64,000 nt of DNA from Candidatus Micrarchaeota archaeon (GTDB lineage Archaea; Micrarchaeota; Micrarchaeia; Anstonellales; Bilamarchaeaceae). Position 1 is the stretch's first letter; the number at the start of each line of letters is the position of its first letter. Shown in pieces: positions 18,901-43,384 of the stretch. The notes below the pieces were generated by a model. The model ran no database searches. It was not told where the DNA came from and saw only the letters and a list, made by a program, of their open reading frames with translations. A program made the translations under genes and the position numbers. Where the stretch lies: NCBI GenBank assembly GCA_964588555.1, contig CAZPPT010000006.1, positions 12,092 through 76,091 on the forward strand, given 5' to 3'.

Positions 18901-20208
18901 GTGAATTACTTCATCAATATGACGTATGGAAGATTACAAGATATTGACATTGCACGATTCAAGAATCGCGCGGCTATCTCAAATGAGGTAAAGGAGCGCG
19001 TGCGCCAAATTGTTGAAAACGTACGCACCCGCGGAATAGATGCGGTTTTGGAATATACAGAACAGTTCGACAGGATTCGGCTTGATTCAAAGACAATTCG
19101 GGTGACTCGAACGGAAATCGGTAGTGCGTACAAAAAAATAACAAACAACGAACTAGAAGTAATCAAAGAATCAATTAAACGAGTGCGCGCGTTTCACTTA
19201 GGACAGAAAAAAGCGATCCAAAACATAGATTTTGAGACTCAAGACGGGATAACCTCTCTTCGTTGGCTTCCGATTCCACGCATTGGGGTCTATGCGCCGG
19301 CTGGAAAAGCACCGCTTCCATCCTCAGTTATAATGGCAGCGATTCCCGCGCAAATTGCCGGAGTTAAGGAGATTATTCTGTGCTCCCCTCCACAAAAGAA
19401 CGGCGAGATCGACCCTTCAATTTTAGTAGCTGCAAACGAATGCGGGATTACTGAAATCTATAAAATGGGCGGAGCGCAGGCAATTGGAGCGCTTGCATAC
19501 GGATGCGGGCTATTTGACGGCGTTGATCTTATTGCCGGCCCAGGGAACGTATATACTGCTTACGCAAAGGATTTTGTGGCGAGTGAAGGGCTTGTAAAAA
19601 CTGATACGCGCGCAGGGCCAAGCGAAGTAGTGGTCATAGCAGATGAGACGGCAAATCCTTCGTTTGTTGCAACTGACATGCTCGCACAGGCTGAGCACGG
19701 TGCAAACTCTTCGGCGATTTGTATCGCTACCTCAAATCCTGTTGCGGAAATGGTACTTGCGGAGCTTAATGAGGGGATTTCACTCATGCCAAAAGCAGAC
19801 GGCATAATACAATCGCTTAAGCAATATGGGGCCATTCTTGTTGCACAAGATACTGAAGAAGCAATCTCATTTGTTAATTCATTTGCACCCGAGCACGTAG
19901 AGGTTTATACGAAGGACGCAGAAGAAATCGCGCCGCTCATAGCAAATGCAGGCGCAGTGTTCATCCAAACGAGCGAAGTATTCGGAGACTACGGCATGAC
20001 AGGAAGCAACCACATCCTGCCCACCGGCAGTGCCGCGCGTTTTAGCTCAGGCGTGAGCGTTTACACGTTCATGAAGTACCAGCTTGTAGAGAAAATGAGT
20101 CAAAGTGCACAGCAAGCGCTTGCTCCAAAGACCGCTCTTTTTGCGCGCCTCGAACAGCTTGAGGCACACGCAAACGCCGCAGAGATGCGAGGTAATCAAA
20201 ATGTTTGA
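18901..20208 (+). CDS. hisD: Histidinol dehydrogenase
   Basis: 435 aa with characteristic ...QAEHGANS... and C-terminal HisD motifs. First gene of the his operon. Confidence 0.9.
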   Translation: MNYFINMTYGRLQDIDIARFKNRAAISNEVKERVRQIVENVRTRGIDAVLEYTEQFDRIRLDSKTIRVTRTEIGSAYKKITNNELEVIKESIKRVRAFHLGQKKAIQNIDFETQDGITSLRWLPIPRIGVYAPAGKAPLPSSVIMAAIPAQIAGVKEIILCSPPQKNGEIDPSILVAANECGITEIYKMGGAQAIGALAYGCGLFDGVDLIAGPGNVYTAYAKDFVASEGLVKTDTRAGPSEVVVIADETANPSFVATDMLAQAEHGANSSAICIATSNPVAEMVLAELNEGISLMPKADGIIQSLKQYGAILVAQDTEEAISFVNSFAPEHVEVYTKDAEEIAPLIANAGAVFIQTSEVFGDYGMTGSNHILPTGSAARFSSGVSVYTFMKYQLVEKMSQSAQQALAPKTALFARLEQLEAHANAAEMRGNQNV

Positions 20209-26067: not shown

Positions 26068-27297
26068 ATGAAACTCGCCCCAAAAGGAATGAGGGATATC
26101 CTTCCGGAAGACGCACTTCTTCGTGAAGACGTCATTGCCACGTTCAAAAGCGTATTCAGGCTCTACGGCTTTGTGCCGCTCGAAACGCCTGCACTTGAAT
26201 ACCTCGCAACGCTTCGTGCAAAGGGAGGGGAGGAAATCGACAAGCAGATATTTGTGCTTGATGACAAGGAACTTGGATTACGGTTCGATCATACCGTGCC
26301 ATTGTCACGGGTTGCGGCAAACAATGCATTCACCAAGCCGTTCAAGCGCTATGTCATTGGCCCGGTGTGGCGAAAGGAAGAACCGCAAAAAGGGCGCTTT
26401 CGGGAATTTTATCAGGCAGATGTCGACACGGTCGGTACTAAAAATATGCGCGCCGAGGCAGAGGTACTTGCCGTTGCGCGCACCGTTGCAGTGAAGCTTG
26501 GGTTTGACTCGCCGCGCATTCTTATCAACAATAGGAAAATCCTCGATGCACTTGCACTGGAGCTCGATGTCCAAAGTAAAAAAGAGGCGATTTTTCGATT
26601 ACTTGACAAGATCGACAAGGTCGGAGAAGACAAAGTAAGGCAGGAAATGAGCGCAGTCATCGGAGAGGAAAAAACAAAGCGCTTATTTGAGATCTTTGAT
26701 ACGCGGGGCGATAATAAAAAGAAGCTCGCAGTTGCAAGAAAAATAAGCGAGGAAGGGGCACGAGAACTTGAGGAAATAATCTCATTATCCGAGTTTCCCA
26801 TCGAGGTTGATTTAGCGCTTGTTCGCGGATTAGGCTATTATACCGGCCCGGTATTTGAGATAAAGGCAAGTGATACCATTGGAAGCATTGCCGGCGGTGG
26901 GAGATATGACAATTTACTTTCTGTTTATGGCCAGGCAGATTATGCGGTTGGGATCAGTTTTGGCATTGAGCGCATCATCACACTTTTAAAAGATCGTGAG
27001 GCGTCAGCTAGAAAAACAATCACGCGCGTATTTGTTGCGTGTGTAAAACCAGAATTCTACCAGGAAGCAGTCAAAATCGCAGACGAATTTCGCAGAAACG
27101 GGATTCCGGCAGAAGCCGACCTAAATGAGCGCAACCTGCGAAAGCAATTGGAATATGTCAATTCGCTTGGGATTCCGTACCTGGTCGTGGTAGGGGGGCG
27201 GGAGGTTAAGGAGAATACATTTGTGCTTCGAGACATGCTTACGGGAAAAGAGGAGAAGCTCGCGCGTGCAGGGCTTATAAACCGCTTACGCGATTAG
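26068..27297 (+). CDS. hisS: Histidyl-tRNA synthetase
   Basis: MKLAPKGMRDILPED N-terminus. Class II motifs and a C-terminal anticodon-binding domain. The ORF extends upstream to 25990 but is Lys-rich junk there. Confidence 0.9.
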   Translation: MKLAPKGMRDILPEDALLREDVIATFKSVFRLYGFVPLETPALEYLATLRAKGGEEIDKQIFVLDDKELGLRFDHTVPLSRVAANNAFTKPFKRYVIGPVWRKEEPQKGRFREFYQADVDTVGTKNMRAEAEVLAVARTVAVKLGFDSPRILINNRKILDALALELDVQSKKEAIFRLLDKIDKVGEDKVRQEMSAVIGEEKTKRLFEIFDTRGDNKKKLAVARKISEEGARELEEIISLSEFPIEVDLALVRGLGYYTGPVFEIKASDTIGSIAGGGRYDNLLSVYGQADYAVGISFGIERIITLLKDREASARKTITRVFVACVKPEFYQEAVKIADEFRRNGIPAEADLNERNLRKQLEYVNSLGIPYLVVVGGREVKENTFVLRDMLTGKEEKLARAGLINRLRD

Positions 27298-30513: not shown

Positions 30514-30919
30514 ACGTTTCAGGTCCTTCCCCATCAAAGTAAATCCCGAACTGCGCCATGGCTTTTGCCAACTCACGGCAGGATGTACGCCCCAAATTTT
30601 TGATCTTAAGTATCTCATGTCTTGTTTTATCGGTAAGCCCTTCAGCAGTAATCCCTTCACACGCTAGCGCTTCTGTCAGTCTTGTTCTTATTGGTTTTTG
30701 TGGTACGTTGGCAATAATCTGGGCGAGTGTTGGGCCTGTGCGTACCGTCGTACCCTGACTTATTACGGATTCCAATTTACTAAGTTCGCCTTCGTGCTGT
30801 CCGCGTACTGCCGCTATTAAAACTTTTTTAACTTCTTTATCCTTGATTCTATCGATAAGTGCACGTAATTTCCCGTGTTTTCTTTCATCTTCACTTGTTC
30901 GGGTATATGTAAATGCCAT
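30503..30919 (-). CDS. Stand-alone RNA polymerase alpha-subunit C-terminal-domain-like (HhH) protein
   Basis: TRLTEALACEGITAEGLTDKTRHEILKIKNLGRTSCRELAKAMAQFGIYF matches the alpha-CTD pattern RSANCLKxxGIxTxGDLxxxTEEELLKIxNxGKKSLxEIxxxLxxxGL. Confidence 0.5.
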   Translation of the reverse strand: MAFTYTRTSEDERKHGKLRALIDRIKDKEVKKVLIAAVRGQHEGELSKLESVISQGTTVRTGPTLAQIIANVPQKPIRTRLTEALACEGITAEGLTDKTRHEILKIKNLGRTSCRELAKAMAQFGIYFDGEGPETFNQ

Positions 30920-31711: not shown

Positions 31712-32197
31712 TCACCCTTCTTTTTTCTCAAGCAGTTTTTTGCCCATTGCCGCACGGTCCTGGACATACCGGTTGAATTGTTCACGCTCCTCCTTTGTCG
31801 AAACCCGTTCTGTGATGTACTTTTTTATACTAAACCAGTTTGCCGCCATGTTTACAAGAAGGGCATGTGCCTTGTCAAGGCTTAACCGTATCTCGTTTGG
31901 CTTCTGGATTTCAACAGTAAGCGGGTTGAATAATGCGCAGATGTTAAGGAGCGCCTCAAAGTCCCGTGTCAGTACCTTTACTTCGATTGTTGTTGAAAAC
32001 TTGCCCTCGTGTTCGATCGGTTCCTCGATTTCGCCATAGGCGGTTACCACGCCGTCCTGCTTGAGGATCGAGTCGACAAACGATGTCGCAAGGTGTTTTA
32101 CTTTATCGCTTTCGTTTGCATGGAGGTCAAAGTAAAGTATAGTAAGTACCCCCCCTTTTTGTACGGTGTCCTTTGTCAGCTTTTCTATGTCTGTCAT
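31712..32197 (-). CDS. Hypothetical protein, operonic with the KaiC-like ATPase
   Basis: 161-aa ORF immediately upstream and co-directional. Confidence 0.45.
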   Translation of the reverse strand: MTDIEKLTKDTVQKGGVLTILYFDLHANESDKVKHLATSFVDSILKQDGVVTAYGEIEEPIEHEGKFSTTIEVKVLTRDFEALLNICALFNPLTVEIQKPNEIRLSLDKAHALLVNMAANWFSIKKYITERVSTKEEREQFNRYVQDRAAMGKKLLEKKEG

Positions 32198-37097: not shown

Positions 37098-37390
37098 GTT
37101 AATGAGGGGCATGAGAGTTCGCTCTGACCTTTCAATAGGGAAGGTACAAGGAAACCGACGGTTTCCTTGAGTGAGGAAGTTCTGTCCACGAAAAGGAATG
37201 AGTGTTTAAGGCACAAAAGGACGAAACAGAAACGATACTGCTACGCAGCTGAAACGGTCGTCCTGAATTCCAATGATCGTGCAAGGCCTTTGCGCCGCTA
37301 TAAGTCCAAAGCTTTGCCGTCTTGGGCAAATTTTGTCCGCAAAGCGGACAGTCTCTCTTAAAATACAAAAGACAGACTATGCCCCTCATT
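37098..37390 (+). ncRNA. Structured ncRNA candidate, possibly a reduced RNase P RNA
   Basis: 5' GAGGGGCATGAG and 3' ATGCCCCTC form a terminal helix. Internal GAGGAAGTTCTGTCC and distal GGACAGACT could form a P4-like pairing, with ACAGAAA present. No convincing long ORF. Confidence 0.3.
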
Positions 37391-37570: not shown

Positions 37571-38965
37571 ATGGTTCGTCAAGTTCAGTCCCCTAGTGTT
37601 CGACAGGTCGTCAATCCAAAAATACAGGGAACGTTGCAATCACCTTTTGAAAGAGATCCCCTTATTGGCAAAGTCGTTTGTGGGCAGTTTGCCCTTGAAA
37701 AGAAGGTCTCAGGAGGTGGGATGGCAAATGTCTATGTTGCGCGCAACCGTACCTTGGGCACTCATCTTGCAGTTAAGGTTTTGAGGGAAGACTTGCCTGA
37801 TGCGTATGCACCTGATCGACTTAAGCTCGAGGCTGCGGTAATGGCAACAATACACCATCCCAACGTCGTACGGATTTTTGACCACGGGGAAGTGGAAGGT
37901 TTACCCTACATCGCCATGGAATATCTGTACGGAGGTTCGCTTGCAGACATGAGGCAGGATCGAATAACTGCACAAAATTCTGGCCCTTACTTATCATTAA
38001 GCGAGTCTATTGAAATTATCTTGCAAATATGCCAGGCTATAATACCACTCCATAGGCTTGGCCTTATCCATCGTGATTTGAAACCTGCAAATATTCTCCT
38101 TGATATAAGCCCAGGCGTGGAAAAACCGATAATAAAGGTATGTGATTTTGGACTTGTTGCACGCCATGATATGTATGAAGTATCGGCTGCACTTTTACCC
38201 TTGGTCACTTCAGTTGGTGACCTTACCCCCCCAGGTGCAAGCGCCGGTACCCCTTCTGCCATGGCACCCGAACAATTTATGGGAACACATTCATTTACTA
38301 CTGACGTTTATGCCGTATGCGCCATGCTTTATGAATTCGTATCTGGAAAGCGGCCGTACGGTAACCCCGCCCCCGATACTACTGTCACGGAATGGTATGC
38401 GCTTAAAAACAAGCCCGTGCGGCCACTACGTGAAGCAAACCCTGAAGTTACGGTGCACCCTCTTCTTGAATCAATTGTCATGCGTGGCCTTGCTATTGAG
38501 CCTGCAGACCGCTTTCAGACAATTTCAGAATTGCACGATGCGCTTCTTGGGGTTCAATCAGCCATACGCAGCCCGGCTCACTCACCCTCGATTCAGGTCC
38601 CTGCTTCCGCACCATCCCTTCAACTGCGAAGTTCACTGTGGCAGTATACACGGTATGTTGCGATCGGGGCGCTTCTTTCAGCTGGGGCAGCATTTCTTTC
38701 ATTTTCACAGGGCACTCAGTCGATTCCGGTTACGCCGACTCCTGCGCCTGTGGCGACATCGTCGGTCATGATCGACTGCAATCCTATCGGCGCACAAGTC
38801 TTTGATGAAACAGGCATGCTTCTTGGCACCACGCCTTTGGAGATTAATCCAACCCTTTTAAAATCGTCTTTTATAACTATTAAAGCAGCTGGGCATACCA
38901 AAAAGTCAATTGTTATCTCCAAACAATCTAATGGCTTTATATATGTTGATCTATCTAAAGAATAA
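37571..38965 (+). CDS. Hanks-type Ser/Thr protein kinase with TM segment and C-terminal PEGA domain
   Basis: GGGMANVYVAR...AVKVL (subdomains I/II), HRDLKPANILL (VIb), DFGL (VII), then a TM helix and a PEGA-like VMIDCNPIGAQVFDETGMLLGTTPLE. Confidence 0.8.
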   Translation: MVRQVQSPSVRQVVNPKIQGTLQSPFERDPLIGKVVCGQFALEKKVSGGGMANVYVARNRTLGTHLAVKVLREDLPDAYAPDRLKLEAAVMATIHHPNVVRIFDHGEVEGLPYIAMEYLYGGSLADMRQDRITAQNSGPYLSLSESIEIILQICQAIIPLHRLGLIHRDLKPANILLDISPGVEKPIIKVCDFGLVARHDMYEVSAALLPLVTSVGDLTPPGASAGTPSAMAPEQFMGTHSFTTDVYAVCAMLYEFVSGKRPYGNPAPDTTVTEWYALKNKPVRPLREANPEVTVHPLLESIVMRGLAIEPADRFQTISELHDALLGVQSAIRSPAHSPSIQVPASAPSLQLRSSLWQYTRYVAIGALLSAGAAFLSFSQGTQSIPVTPTPAPVATSSVMIDCNPIGAQVFDETGMLLGTTPLEINPTLLKSSFITIKAAGHTKKSIVISKQSNGFIYVDLSKE

Positions 38966-39019
38966 GTATTTAATTGTGCTATACTACTATTTTAAATATT
39001 TTTCCTGTATATTTGTACC

Positions 39020-40396
39020 ATGCAAATTCAGACTGAGGCTTTTTGTCGAAATACTACGCGACTCCGCTCGCCACGGGTACGCAACCCATTTAGCGGCGTT
39101 TCGCCAGCACCGGATACAAGCCTTATTGGTCAGCGCATAGAATACTTTCGTATTGTTGAACTGGTTGCCGAAGGGGGTATGGGTGCAGTTTACCGTGCAC
39201 AGCACATAAAACTTGGCTACGACGTCGCAATAAAAGTCCTTCACGCATCTCTTGTAACTGACCCGGTGATGATACGGCGTTTTCGGCGTGAGGCAGAACT
39301 ATTAAGTAGCATGAACGACCCCCATATCGTACGGGTTCGTGAATATGGATTTTACCATGATCTTCCTTATATTATTATGGATTATCTTGCAGGGCAAACT
39401 CTCGATGAAGTACTACGTGCCCAGACTCATATACATTCGGATCGTGCCGTATCAATTTTGCTTCAGATATGTGCTGCCATCGCGCCGCTTCATGCACGCG
39501 GCATCATTCACCGTGACCTTAAACCATCCAATATCATACTCCAAAACGGTGACGCAGTGAAACTTTTTGATCTTGGCGTAGCGCGAGAGATCACTGCATC
39601 AGAACCGCCCATGCCATCGGTAGCATGTTTTGTAACCGGCATGACCCCTCACGGCAATATCATTGGTACGCCTTCCTATATGCCGCCCGAACAATTCAAG
39701 GGATTATATAATTTCGAAAACGACATTTATTCGTGGGGGGTAATTGCATATCAAATGCTCGCTGGCGTTCTACCGTACGTATGCGACCGGATCGACATAT
39801 ACTCAGTTGCAAAGCAGGTCCCACCAGTACGCCTTCGTGAGCGTGTGCCGAGCGTCCCTCCCGTGCTTGAATCAATCGTCATGCGCGCCCTTGACCCCGA
39901 CCCAACACGTAGGTTTCAAACTGCAGGCGAGCTTTATGCCTGCCTTGCTGAATTTCAGTCAGGAAATGCTGCAGCACGTTCTGCCTTTCTAGACACTGCC
40001 AAGCAGGCTATGCATACACTACGCGTTAAGCACCCAGCTATCGGCAGCTTTGTTTCCATTTCACTTATCTCGGCAGCTGCAACTGTTGCGGCTTTGTTTT
40101 CCTTACCTAGCAACATCGTATCCAACTCTGCAACGTATCAGCCATTACCTGTCCAGGCATCAACTTATCCTACAGTTATGGTCGACTGCAATCCTATTGG
40201 CGCACAAGTCTTTGATGAAACAGGCACGCTTCTTGGCACCACGCCTTTGGAGATCTCATTTGGTCCTGATATGAATTTGCGCGACGTGACAATCAGGGCA
40301 GATGGCTATAAAGAGCGCCAGGTTACCCTCTCCACTGAAGGGCAGGTTGTTTCGGTTGTGCTTGAGCGGCCGTTGGTGCTTCTTGCAGGTGAATAA
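39020..40396 (+). CDS. Hanks-type Ser/Thr protein kinase, tandem paralogue, with PEGA domain
   Basis: GGMGAVYRAQH...AIKVL, HRDLKPSNIIL, DLGV, and C-terminal VMVDCNPIGAQVFDETGTLLGTTPLE. Confidence 0.8.
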   Translation: MQIQTEAFCRNTTRLRSPRVRNPFSGVSPAPDTSLIGQRIEYFRIVELVAEGGMGAVYRAQHIKLGYDVAIKVLHASLVTDPVMIRRFRREAELLSSMNDPHIVRVREYGFYHDLPYIIMDYLAGQTLDEVLRAQTHIHSDRAVSILLQICAAIAPLHARGIIHRDLKPSNIILQNGDAVKLFDLGVAREITASEPPMPSVACFVTGMTPHGNIIGTPSYMPPEQFKGLYNFENDIYSWGVIAYQMLAGVLPYVCDRIDIYSVAKQVPPVRLRERVPSVPPVLESIVMRALDPDPTRRFQTAGELYACLAEFQSGNAAARSAFLDTAKQAMHTLRVKHPAIGSFVSISLISAAATVAALFSLPSNIVSNSATYQPLPVQASTYPTVMVDCNPIGAQVFDETGTLLGTTPLEISFGPDMNLRDVTIRADGYKERQVTLSTEGQVVSVVLERPLVLLAGE

Positions 40397-41716
40397 TTAC
40401 ATCCGTAGTCCAGGTATCTTGCCGCCCTTCATCATCTTTTCTAATTGAGCACGAAATCCGCGGTTGTTTTTATACATCTTTATCATTTTTTCCATTTTTT
40501 CAAACTGTGATAAAAATTCGCGTACCTCGTTTTCAGTTGTACCGCTTCCCTTCGCAATACGTGCTATACGTGTAGCGTTCTTTCGTATGATCGACGCATC
40601 CTTTCGCTCGCCGGGGGTCATGGAATTGATCATGGACTCAAATTTTTTCATCTTTTCTTCCCCTTGGTGAACCATCTCCTTTGGAACATCGGCTGCACCC
40701 AGCATGCCAAGTACGTTACCCAACGGGCCTAATTTCTTTGCCTGCTTAAGCTGGTCATAAAATGTTTGTACTGTAAACTCTTCCTGCTCCAGTCGCTTTG
40801 CATCTTCTTCTGTAATAATCGTCTTAACCTTTTCCATAAGCCCCGCAATATCAGGGACACCAAGTAACCTTCCAACGTATTTGTCCGCATGGTAAATCTC
40901 AAGGTCTTCAACTTTTTCGCCAACTCCGATGAATGCCGTTTTTGCATTTGTCGAAGCTACTGCACTAAGCGCCCCCCCTCCCTTGCCCGACCCGTCCATC
41001 TTGGTAATAATGACCCCGCTTATCCCGATTGCATTATTGAATTCCTGTGCCTGCTTTCCTGCCACCTGGCCGATATCCGCGCTTACGACAAGGAATGTTT
41101 CGTCTGGCTTAAGCACGTTATTTATTTCCTTTAATTCAGTTATGAGTGTCCCGTCAAACGCGCTTCGTCCAGCCGAATCGACAATAACGATGTCCTCGCG
41201 TGCATTCCTGAGTGCCTCATTTACAATTCGTGCTGCATTTTTCTCGCCCTTGATCGTAAAGAAATTTGCATTTACCTTTTTTGCAAGCTGTTCGAGTTGC
41301 TCCTGTGCCGCAGGCCGGTCGACATCCGCCCCGACAACAAGCACACTTAATCCCCGTGACTTGTAAAAGTGGGCAATTTTCCCCACACTGGTAGTTTTTC
41401 CACTTCCAAACAATCCGCATAACAAAATGTTGTGCTTACCGAGCCGCGGCTCATATCCTGTACCCATGAGTGCCACAAGCTCTTCGTATACTACCTTGAG
41501 CACGTGTTCCTTAAGGCTTAATGCCTCAAGCTTTTTTGTTTTAAGTGAGCGCTCTTCGATCCGTTTTGAGATTTCAAACACTAGCTTGACGTTGACATCG
41601 TTTGCAATAAGTACCCGTTGTAAATCCTTTATGAGCGCCTTTACCGCATCCTCATCGACATACGGTTTACCGGTAAGCTTTGAGAGCGCTTCGCGTAGTT
41701 TCTTGCCTAAATCCAT
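40397..41716 (-). CDS. srp54: Signal recognition particle protein SRP54
   Basis: N domain, G domain (GLFGSGKTTSVGK, DxAGR) and a Met-rich M domain at the C-terminus. Confidence 0.9.
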   Translation of the reverse strand: MDLGKKLREALSKLTGKPYVDEDAVKALIKDLQRVLIANDVNVKLVFEISKRIEERSLKTKKLEALSLKEHVLKVVYEELVALMGTGYEPRLGKHNILLCGLFGSGKTTSVGKIAHFYKSRGLSVLVVGADVDRPAAQEQLEQLAKKVNANFFTIKGEKNAARIVNEALRNAREDIVIVDSAGRSAFDGTLITELKEINNVLKPDETFLVVSADIGQVAGKQAQEFNNAIGISGVIITKMDGSGKGGGALSAVASTNAKTAFIGVGEKVEDLEIYHADKYVGRLLGVPDIAGLMEKVKTIITEEDAKRLEQEEFTVQTFYDQLKQAKKLGPLGNVLGMLGAADVPKEMVHQGEEKMKKFESMINSMTPGERKDASIIRKNATRIARIAKGSGTTENEVREFLSQFEKMEKMIKMYKNNRGFRAQLEKMMKGGKIPGLRM

Positions 41717-41760
41717 GCCAATCTAATGTATGGAAATTGTTAAATAGGGATATAAAAAAA

Positions 41761-42031
41761 TGGACCTGGAGGGACAAACGCCGCACAATTAGCGAACCCG
41801 TTTTGGGCCGCCTTTTTTGAAAAGGCGGACTCGCACCCTCGGCCCCCTGAATTTGCGGTTTTCAGTTTCGCGTTCTTGGTTCTGAAAACGTGCGAATCAG
41901 GTGCTCTGCTGTTGCTCTGCGCAGTTAGCGACCCACTCTTGGGCCGCAATTGTTTTCGGATGAAAACAATGCGCATTGTCGGACACGACAATCGCGCCTT
42001 TTGGTAAAATGCGGAACTGAGCTACAGGCCC
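41761..42031 (-). tRNA. tRNA-Ala(CGC) with three introns (D-loop, 37/38, T-loop); G3:U70 present
   Basis: Minus-strand exons: GGGCCTGTAGCTCAGT ... GAGC A CCTGA TTCGCA [intron] TCAGG GGGCC GAGGG TGCGAGT [intron] CCCTC CAGGTCC A, then T7. The acceptor GGGCCTG/CAGGTCC gives the G3:U70 Ala identity pair. The exact D-loop splice is unresolved. Confidence 0.6.
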
Positions 42032-42100
42032 ATAAACATAGATATTGGCAACAAAAACCTATTTAAACACCTCTCTACAAGAAATTATTCTCTTATTTTT

Positions 42101-42221
42101 GCGACTGTAGTCTAGCAAACTTTTTGGAAAAGTTTGATCAAAACACTTCCTTCAAGTTTGGGCGTTGGTAGGATTCGAGATTGCCAATCTCGTGACCCGG
42201 GTTCGAACCCCGGCGGTCGCA
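42101..42221 (+). tRNA. tRNA-Gly(GCC) with a ~48-nt D-loop intron
   Basis: GCGACTG TA GTCT AGC[intron 42117-42164]TTGGTA GGAT T CGAGA TTGCCAA TCTCG TGAC CCGGG TTCGAAC CCCGG CGGTCGC A. Confidence 0.75.
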
Positions 42222-42274
42222 TTTTACTATTTTAAATATTTACGCGGGTATAACGTTTAATTTTAAAACCTACT

Positions 42275-43384
42275 TTGCCAACGTATTCTATGGTCAAACA
42301 CTCACTTGCCACAATCGGCTCACATTCTGCACTTGATGTTGCTGACGGCGCACATGCTGAAAAAATATACGGCATTGTCGTTGCACAACGCGGCCGTGAA
42401 AAGACCTATTTACAGTATTATAAAAAGCGAAAGCGCGCAGGAAAGGAAATTGGCTGCATTGATGAAGTTGTTTTGGTCAATAAATTTAGCGAGATGGCAA
42501 GCGATCCGGTCATCTCTCTTCTTAAAAAAAGAAATGCGATTTTTGTTCCGAACCGAAGTTTTGCCGTATACGTCGGCTATGATGCAATTGAAAACAAGTT
42601 TGATGTGCCTATTTTTGGAAACAAATATTTGCTTCGGGCTGAAGAACGAAACGCACCAAACAACCAATATGATTTATTGAAAAAAGCGAATGTCCCAACG
42701 CCCCAAAAAATAAGCTCGCCAGATAAGATTGACCGGTTAGTATTGGTTAAGGTAAACGAAGCGAAACGGACGTACGAGCGGGCATTTTTTACTGTGTCAA
42801 GTTACGATGAATACAAAACAAAGAGCGAATCGCTTATGCGTGCGGGAAAGATACATAAAAATGATCTCGAGCGAGCGGTAATTGAGGAGTTTGTCATCGG
42901 CGCACATTTTAACTTCAATTTCTTTTATTCCGGAATTCATGACGAACTTGAGTTGTTAGGAGTTGATACGAGACGCCAGACCAATCTTGACGGTTTCTTA
43001 CGGATGCCTGCAGATATCCAAAGCGATGTTCTCAAATCGCAGCAACCTTCGACGATCGAGGTCGGCCATATCGCGTGCACCATACGCGAGAGCCTCCTTG
43101 AGTCGGTATTTGAACAAGCAGAACGTTTTGTTGCAACAGTGCAAAAGGAATACAAATACGGAATTGTTGGGCCATTTGCGCTTCAGGGGGCGATGGTTGA
43201 GCGGGACGGAAAAGAGGAGTTTACCGTATTTGACGTTTCATTTCGGATGCCCGGGTCGCCAGGAACGAGGTACACGCCCTATTCCCATTACTTGTTTGGA
43301 GAAAACATAAGCTTTGGACGAAGAATTGCAATTGAGCTTAAGGAAGCAGAAAAGAAAAAGATGGTTGCGGAGATTACTACGTAA
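42275..43384 (+). CDS. purP: 5-formaminoimidazole-4-carboxamide ribonucleotide synthetase (archaeal PurP, ATP-grasp)
   Basis: IATIGSHSALDV N-terminal motif and length/pattern of the archaeal PurP (DUF1246/DUF1297) family. Confidence 0.7.
   Translation: MPTYSMVKHSLATIGSHSALDVADGAHAEKIYGIVVAQRGREKTYLQYYKKRKRAGKEIGCIDEVVLVNKFSEMASDPVISLLKKRNAIFVPNRSFAVYVGYDAIENKFDVPIFGNKYLLRAEERNAPNNQYDLLKKANVPTPQKISSPDKIDRLVLVKVNEAKRTYERAFFTVSSYDEYKTKSESLMRAGKIHKNDLERAVIEEFVIGAHFNFNFFYSGIHDELELLGVDTRRQTNLDGFLRMPADIQSDVLKSQQPSTIEVGHIACTIRESLLESVFEQAERFVATVQKEYKYGIVGPFALQGAMVERDGKEEFTVFDVSFRMPGSPGTRYTPYSHYLFGENISFGRRIAIELKEAEKKKMVAEITT

Follow-up and report, generated by a model that had tools for sequence, protein, structure and literature searches.

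Divergent tRNA-Ala(CGC) and tRNA-Gly(GCC) Genes with Three Introns and One Intron in a Micrarchaeota Genome

The Locus

The stretch of DNA analyzed here, called the window, is 64,000 nucleotides long and corresponds to positions 12092-76091 of contig C6 in a genome of 1.43 Mb (39 contigs, 92% complete). It contains two tRNA genes that point away from each other and are flanked by an SRP54 gene and a PurP-like gene (Table 1). The minus strand carries a gene for tRNA-Ala(CGC) that is divided into four exons by three introns. The plus strand carries a gene for tRNA-Gly(GCC) with a single intron in the D-loop. Two tandem genes for eukaryote-type Ser/Thr protein kinases are located upstream of SRP54 (Pfam Pkinase, E=3e-33 and 5e-43).

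Exon 1 of tRNA-Ala reads, from 42031 to 42017, GGGCCUG, UA, GCUC and AG. Intron 3 of the same gene begins with a hairpin, CCGCCUUUU/AAAAGGCGG, which is followed by a CCCAAAAC tail. The Gly intron is also composed of a hairpin and then a tail, in this case GAUCAAAAC. CCA is encoded by neither gene.

The mature 5' ends of the two tRNAs are separated by a spacer of 69 nt (42032-42100). A preliminary description of this DNA had put the gap at 80 nt and the length of the Gly intron at 48 nt; both figures need correction, the mapped intron having 50 nt. The spacer contains a TATTTAAA box, about 33 nt upstream of position 1 of tRNA-Ala and about 37 nt upstream of position 1 of tRNA-Gly. Several more of the genome's tRNA genes have a similar TATTTAAA box 30-40 nt upstream, and the box in the spacer may be one bidirectional promoter or TATA element that serves both genes. 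At the other end, a T-run closes nearly all surveyed tRNA genes of the genome.

Table 1. Features of the tRNA-Ala(CGC)/tRNA-Gly(GCC) locus, its neighbors, and related features elsewhere in the genome. Positions are those of the window unless a contig is named.
Feature	Position	Strand	Description
Kinase genes (two, tandem)	37571-40396	plus	Eukaryote-type Ser/Thr protein kinases
SRP54 gene	40397-41716	minus	Flanks the tRNA-Ala gene
T7 run	41754-41760	minus	Directly 3' of Ala A73; likely archaeal transcription terminator
tRNA-Ala(CGC) gene	41761-42031	minus	271 nt; four exons and three introns; ARAGORN on spliced 72-mer, cloverleaf search
Ala exon 1	42017-42031	minus	Positions 1-15: acceptor 5' strand, U8 A9, D-stem GCUC, A14 G15
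Ala intron 1	41912-42016	minus	105 nt; D-loop 15/16; three-hairpin module
Ala exon 2	41891-41911	minus	Positions 16-37: remainder of D-loop, D-stem GAGC, anticodon stem 5' strand, UUCGCA
Ala intron 2	41852-41890	minus	39 nt; canonical 37/38
Ala exon 3	41830-41851	minus	Positions 38-59: anticodon stem 3' strand, variable loop GGGCC, T-stem GAGGG, T-loop UGCGAG
Ala intron 3	41775-41829	minus	55 nt; T-loop 59/60
Ala exon 4	41761-41774	minus	Positions 60-73: U60, T-stem CCCUC, acceptor 3' strand CAGGUCC, A73
ORF	41740-41991	minus	83 codons, TTG start; overlaps Ala exons 2-4 and introns
TATTTAAA box	42060-42067		Near-palindromic, TATA-like; between the two genes
tRNA-Gly(GCC) gene	42101-42221	plus	121 nt; two exons and one intron; TTTT directly after A73
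Gly exon 1	42101-42115	plus	Positions 1-15
Gly intron	42116-42165	plus	50 nt; D-loop 15/16; hairpin then GAUCAAAAC tail
Gly exon 2	42166-42221	plus	Positions 16-73
PurP-like gene	42275-43384	plus	Flanks the tRNA-Gly gene
Other tRNA-Ala genes (two)	contig C3 115144-115348; contig C1 69249-69413		Same D-/T-loop pair as tRNA-Ala(CGC) (also noted over L084-L111)
tRNA-His leader hairpin	contig C11, about 32082-32115		T-run/A-run hairpin outside introns
tRNA-Leu(GAG) leader hairpin	contig C3, about 20020-20050		T-run/A-run hairpin outside introns
tRNA-Leu(UAA) leader hairpin	contig C2, about 125020-125046		T-run/A-run hairpin outside introns
tRNA-Ser(GCU) leader hairpin	contig C14, about 27051-27075		T-run/A-run hairpin outside introns

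Identification of the Two tRNAs

The tRNA-Ala assembles only when three insertions (in the D-loop, at 37/38, and in the T-loop) are removed, as had been proposed in the preliminary description. This is seen both from the exon map and from the spliced RNA, a molecule of 72 nt that ARAGORN calls as tRNA-Ala(cgc) under default settings. The features listed earlier for the minus strand are all present: the acceptor stem GGGCCUG/CAGGUCC with its G3:U70 pair, the anticodon CGC, and the T stem GAGGG/CCCUC. To these can be added the discriminator A73, the D-stem GCUC/GAGC and the anticodon stem CCUGA/UCAGG. The plus strand holds the divergent tRNA-Gly(GCC) with a D-loop intron that had also been reported there; its spliced product of 71 nt is called by default ARAGORN as tRNA-Gly(gcc).

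ARAGORN thus recognizes the spliced sequences, but the unspliced locus is called in neither default nor intron mode. In the entire 64-kb window ARAGORN reports no tRNA in either mode, and lowered thresholds yield only wrong folds. The single Rfam tRNA match in the window (42162-42221, plus, 32.8 bits) takes in three quarters of tRNA-Gly, from the 3' side. When 41700-42300 was scanned against Rfam with E allowed up to 10, no other credible family appeared and the Ala gene stayed unmatched.

For this analysis a cloverleaf search was written that tolerates insertions in any of the three loops (D, anticodon and T) and demands stems without mismatches. It scores the Ala gene at 21 and the Gly gene at 20. 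Because no locus of the reversed-genome control reaches 20, this result is beyond chance. Across the genome, 14 loci score 20 or more (none in the control), and 26 score 18 or more (four in the control).

A fold without introns had been named as an observation that would speak against this reading. None was found, and the assembly contains no uninterrupted copy, nor any other copy, of tRNA-Ala(CGC) or tRNA-Gly(GCC). A partial survey (28 of about 45 expected genes) likewise found no second gene with a CGC or GCC anticodon. Each of the two tRNAs is therefore probably the product of the sole gene for its anticodon. Both genes are confirmed as real tRNA genes, and they had been read correctly from the start.

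The rest of the tRNA gene set looks much the same. Only nine loci of the whole genome lie at or above the Rfam tRNA cut-off. The survey kept 28 genes. About four of them lack introns, and at least six contain three each (Ala-CGC, Arg-UCG, Val-CAC, Asp-GUC, Gly-UCC, and Lys-UUU). Since most surveyed genes are interrupted, the Ala/Gly locus is ordinary for its genome. The survey covers introns in the three loops and stems free of mismatches, a definition that leaves out tRNA-Glu(CUC), for example. That gene (contig C20, 8168-8350, plus) has introns in the anticodon-loop and the T-loop and is detected by neither Rfam nor the cloverleaf survey. With no ARAGORN call in the window, and with nine Rfam loci in a genome that needs about 45 tRNAs, metagenome-assembled genomes of Micrarchaeota can be expected to look poor in tRNAs and to receive calls of spurious ORFs such as 41740-41991 in place of the genes.

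Splicing Motifs

The rule for bulge-helix-bulge (BHB) motifs was applied with a central helix of 4 bp, each cut falling 2 nt 3' of the helix on its own strand. Every one of the four introns has a strict or relaxed BHB. The central pairs formed are 4/4, 3/4 and 3/4 for Ala introns 1 to 3 and 4/4 for the Gly intron.

Ala intron 2 has a strict hBHBh' motif and is like a canonical 37/38 intron in its 3-nt bulges, its outer helix of 5 bp and its inner helix of 8 bp. It is unlike one in that its central helix (3/4) contains one U-C mismatch. The other three introns are non-canonical in position. In Ala intron 3 the central helix also has 3/4 pairs, the bulges are AG/U and UG/U (cut at the slash), the T stem serves as the outer helix of 5 bp, and an inner helix of 4 bp is possible.

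The two D-loop introns have relaxed HBh' motifs with no outer helix. In Ala intron 1 an intronic GAGC pairs with the D-stem GCUC (4/4), with bulges AG/U and AA/C and an imperfect inner helix. In the Gly intron an intronic GGGC pairs with the D-stem GUCU (4/4), with bulges AG/C and GU/U and an inner helix of 6 bp. Without an outer helix, cleavage at these sites would hinge on recognition of the relaxed motif. We know of no demonstration that the EndA of ARMAN-2 cleaves relaxed motifs at 15/16; at 59/60 such cleavage has been demonstrated.

Evidence for the tRNA-Gly motif can be provided by comparison. In eight tRNA-Gly(GCC) orthologues the introns at 15/16 span 37-148 nt and are unrelated in sequence. 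The tetranucleotide 3-6 nt 5' of the 3' splice site nevertheless pairs with GUCU at all four positions in all eight, and is GGGC, GGAC, AGAC or GGAU. By chance this would be expected at a rate of about 0.02 per genome, and the comparison thus supports the motif strongly.

A different register for Ala intron 1, which would leave the D-loop AGUUCCA, was rejected: only 3/4 central pairs form, and this D-loop occurs in no orthologue. Self-splicing introns of group I or II were rejected as well, since the introns here have 39-105 nt compared to more than about 200 nt, and none of the intron families in Rfam gives a match even with E raised to 10. Box C/D motifs were sought in the introns by eye. 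No UGAUGA was found, and an intron-encoded box C/D sRNA is thus unlikely.

Orthologues and Junctions

Both spliced products equal uninterrupted orthologues in length and architecture. In the sister genus g13, three genomes have an uninterrupted tRNA-Ala(CGC), also of 72 nt, with the D-loop AGCAGCA and the T-loop UGCGAAU. Its differences from the spliced product are confined to the acceptor, anticodon and T stems. For tRNA-Gly(GCC), genomes G018 and G039 contain uninterrupted genes with the D-loops AGUGGUUA and AGCCUGGUA, compared to AGUGGUA in the spliced product from the window.

The tRNA-Ala(CGC) orthologue of G002, a genome of the same genus, has identical exons. The introns in its D-loop and T-loop exceed those of the gene in the window in length and are not related to them in sequence. 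It has no intron at 37/38 and reads UUCGCAUUCAGG without interruption across the predicted junction of Ala intron 2. The absence of the intron in this orthologue fixes that junction.

Intron content varies among members of the genus. Only the gene in the window has Ala intron 2, and a T-loop intron in tRNA-Gly(GCC) occurs in G001 and G002 alone. The tRNA-Gly(GCC) genes of these two genomes are 279 nt long in G001 (contig C63, L010 1337-1615) and 437 nt in G002 (contig C20, L009 1049-1485). Their D-loop introns have 148 and 134 nt, and the additional T-loop introns, missing from the gene in the window, have 63 and about 230 nt, respectively. Judging from the sequences of these same-genus genes, intron turnover is fast at conserved sites.

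The tRNA-Ala Elbow

All three tRNA-Ala isoacceptors of the genome share an unusual elbow. The D-loop has 7 nt of the form AG-Y-AG-CA, with A18 G19 and no GG doublet, and the T-loop is UGCGAGU, with G55. Every other credible tRNA gene in the genome survey has the T-loop UUCRA.

The same pair is common among relatives. Of 23 readable tRNA-Ala genes, 20 have A18 with G55, three have the canonical GG and UUC, and none is mixed; genus g6 contains both states. This looks like a coupled exchange, specific to tRNA-Ala, in which A:G replaces G:U as the tertiary pair 18:55. A literature search on an A18/G55 tRNA elbow found nothing relevant.

Processing Machinery

Contig C2 encodes an EndA of 394 aa that matches PDB 4FZ2, the epsilon2 enzyme of ARMAN-2, over its full length (E=5e-131) and is an epsilon2-type splicing endonuclease. 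Its relatives in GTDB species genomes (62 loci, 47-90% identity) belong nearly all to Candidatus Micrarchaeota/Micrarchaeia, including Bilamarchaeaceae and Anstonellaceae, and the host is thus a Micrarchaeote. The ARMAN-2 enzyme cuts strict and relaxed BHB motifs in vitro, including those at 59/60 (PMC3239211). RtcB (555 bits) and an archaeal CCA-adding enzyme are encoded in the genome too.

A candidate for the RNase P RNA is found in the window at 37139-37387 on the plus strand. The match to RF00373 is weak (35.5 bits against a cut-off of 84, E=8e-9). As it is the sole match in the genome, the RNase P RNA is probably divergent or reduced.

A second, smaller EndA-like gene of 160 aa lies on contig C10 at 30555-30794 (L020:1459-1941, minus). 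Its product contains the tRNA_int_endo catalytic domain of Pfam (34 bits) and, among PDB entries, is most similar to the alpha4 enzyme of M. jannaschii, 1A79 (E=4e-10).

A Model for Expression

The favored reading, to which we assign a probability of about 0.9, is that the locus holds two functional archaeal tRNA genes that are divergently transcribed and spliced in cis to a 72-nt tRNA-Ala(CGC) and a 71-nt tRNA-Gly(GCC). The exon map, the motifs, the match to orthologues, the enzyme genes and the intron families are observed; that the genes are transcribed, cut and ligated, and in which order, we infer from sequence. Among public sequencing runs, none of RNA is listed as containing the locus. 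The single metatranscriptome from the same study gave no match to it, nor did the DNA runs X2 and X3, and X4 gave just a fragment of a foreign tRNA; these results speak neither for nor against expression.

Transcription would run in both directions, possibly from the shared TATA-like box, and the precursors would end at the T-runs. The intervening sequences would then fold with the flanking exon into strict or relaxed BHB motifs. The epsilon2-type endonuclease would make one cut per strand, 2 nt 3' of the central helix of 4 bp. The exons would be ligated by RtcB, the leader removed by RNase P, and the 3' end finished by the CCA-adding enzyme.

In the D-loop introns, the central helix would be formed by the 5' strand of the D-stem and an intronic decoy of its 3' strand. 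Because the decoy occupies the 5' strand, the D stem could form only after splicing.

Alternative Explanations

The genes may be real but at least one junction may lie off the map, for instance if Ala intron 1 were shifted by 1 nt or if the 105-nt insert were removed in two steps. A slide of 1 nt would give the D-loop AGUAGCA, as in the other two tRNA-Ala genes, and the motif of this intron has no outer helix and an imperfect inner one. The BHB rule, however, yields AGCAGCA, which is exactly the D-loop of the uninterrupted tRNA-Ala(CGC) in g13, and a misplaced junction is unlikely. Somewhat less probable still is that tRNA-Ala(CGC) is a decaying pseudogene, with GCG codons read by tRNA-Ala(UGC) and with the insertions and G55 as signs of erosion. 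A CGC isoacceptor is dispensable in some organisms, and U55 is nearly universal in T-loops. Taken alone, G55 would suggest a decaying gene, as would the T-loop UGCGAGU with a D-loop that has no GG doublet, and the mismatch in each of two central helices (3/4 each) points the same way. The pattern of conservation argues otherwise. The exons are identical to those of the G002 orthologue while the introns have diverged, the differences from the sister genus fall within stems, and the length of the gene is kept. The D- and T-loop pair is a trait of the lineage, being present in 3/3 tRNA-Ala genes here and 20/23 in relatives and never mixed, and both the promoter box and the terminator are intact.

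Two further explanations have hardly any probability. The minus strand could encode the 83-residue protein of ORF 41740-41991, either instead of the tRNA or besides it, as an open frame with a TTG start does exist. But the frame crosses three tRNA exons and is broken in G002, and the protein has no Pfam match. Its similarity in tblastn is limited to common tRNA and intron DNA. For lack of a Pfam match, by its overlap with exons and introns, and because its similarity comes only from tRNA and intron DNA, the ORF is spurious, in agreement with the preliminary description. The other possibility is a split or permuted tRNA whose pieces are joined in trans. Such tRNAs are known in other archaea with broad-specificity endonucleases (PMC3239211, PMC4090602). 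Here, however, the exons of each gene follow one another in order on a single strand, over 271 nt (Ala) and 121 nt (Gly), and the Ala gene has one promoter-like box upstream, one T-run downstream and no internal T-run of 5 or more.

Intron Families

Three of the four introns belong to repeated families, whose members elsewhere in the genome occupy different positions and different tRNAs and occur in either orientation. Ala intron 3 has about 16 related copies. The tRNA-Ala(GGC) gene on contig C3 has the same T-loop intron (55/55 identical), and the 37/38 intron of tRNA-Leu(UAA) is 88% identical to this 59/60 intron over 42 nt. The three-hairpin module of Ala intron 1 is 80% identical over 79 nt to the anticodon-loop (37/38) intron of tRNA-His(GUG), and an additional copy is present on contig C30. 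The closest relative of the Gly intron is the anticodon-loop (37/38) intron of tRNA-Glu(CUC) on contig C20 (93% over 44 nt). The Gly intron also resembles the reverse complement of the anticodon-loop intron of tRNA-Val(UAC). Ala intron 2 has no relatives in the genome. By these similarities, three of the four introns are copies of modules spread among the tRNA genes of the genome.

A hairpin with a T-run and an A-run as its arms recurs in these modules. Such hairpins had been noted at the locus before, and three introns have them: the first and third of tRNA-Ala and that of tRNA-Gly. Genome-wide there are 41, compared to six in a shuffled genome. Just over half of them (21/41) fall in surveyed tRNA genes, which make up 0.42% of the genome, and most bear a CCCAAAAC-like tail.

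Read along the transcript, the module runs from hairpin to tail at the 5' ends of introns and from tail to hairpin at the 3' ends. A comparison of 50 introns yields 46 pairs with similarity in the same sense and 29 with similarity in reverse complement, and the similarity between intron pairs reaches past the palindromic hairpin.

Relation to Known Systems

The locus is new, but its kind is already known, as disrupted tRNA genes have previously been published for Micrarchaeota. In ARMAN-2 (Candidatus Micrarchaeum acidiphilum) they occur together with an epsilon2 endonuclease (Fujishima et al. 2011, PMC3239211; Hirata et al. 2012, PMC3488258). The tRNA genes of ARMAN-2 are highly disrupted, and the published maximum for archaeal tRNA genes is three introns per gene. 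The genome studied here shares with ARMAN-2 the phylum (judged from the EndA relatives), the type of enzyme, introns at both 37/38 and 59/60, and the presence of several introns in one gene. Disruption is more extensive here, with about 4/28 surveyed genes uninterrupted, whereas 56% are disrupted in ARMAN-2. The introns are also longer here (up to about 190 nt) and the D-loop 15/16 site recurs.

The other related case is that of the transposing tRNA introns of Thermoproteales, from work of 2010 as summarized in PMC4090602. Going by that summary, the two systems share up to three introns per gene and an intron content that varies between close relatives. The highly similar introns at different positions of non-orthologous tRNAs found here (Gly/Glu, Ala/His, Ala/Leu) are a further likeness to the Thermoproteales introns as summarized. 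Measured against the same summary, the systems differ in phylum and in enzyme, which is alpha2-beta2 in Thermoproteales and epsilon2 here. A further difference from what is summarized there is the module of a T-run/A-run hairpin and a CCCAAAAC-like tail, which here occurs in both orientations relative to transcription.

The locus leaves the known picture of archaeal tRNA introns unchanged. It does provide a cleanly mapped three-intron gene with junctions verified by orthologues, of which few are on record for the lineage with the epsilon2 endonuclease. The locus also illustrates how an intronic decoy of a D-stem strand is used at the D-loop 15/16 site. The turnover within the genus, together with modules common to several positions and orientations, is raw material for the study of how archaeal tRNA introns spread.

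A Possible Mobile Element

The module consists of a 9-bp stem with T-run and A-run arms, followed by CCCAAAAC or GAUCAAAAC. One speculative interpretation is that this hairpin and tail form a small mobile DNA element that seeds BHB introns, in either orientation, in nearly all tRNA genes of the clade. Its target sites would then, just as tentatively, be the D-, anticodon- and T-loops. Insertion in either orientation would be explained by the two-fold symmetry of the BHB motif.

If an element of this type exists, the locus would record recent events, such as the appearance or disappearance of Ala intron 2 among members of the genus. The Gly intron held in common with tRNA-Glu and the identical T-loop introns of two tRNA-Ala genes would also be recent. 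Introns would then spread independently of orientation, which to our knowledge has no description for archaeal tRNA introns.

Copies of the T-run/A-run hairpin also occur outside introns, in tRNA leaders 2-4 nt upstream of the mature 5' end (Table 1). These leader hairpins could be insertions of the element beside genes, or they could be part of leader processing. The one in the tRNA-His leader has a GATCAAAAC-type tail.
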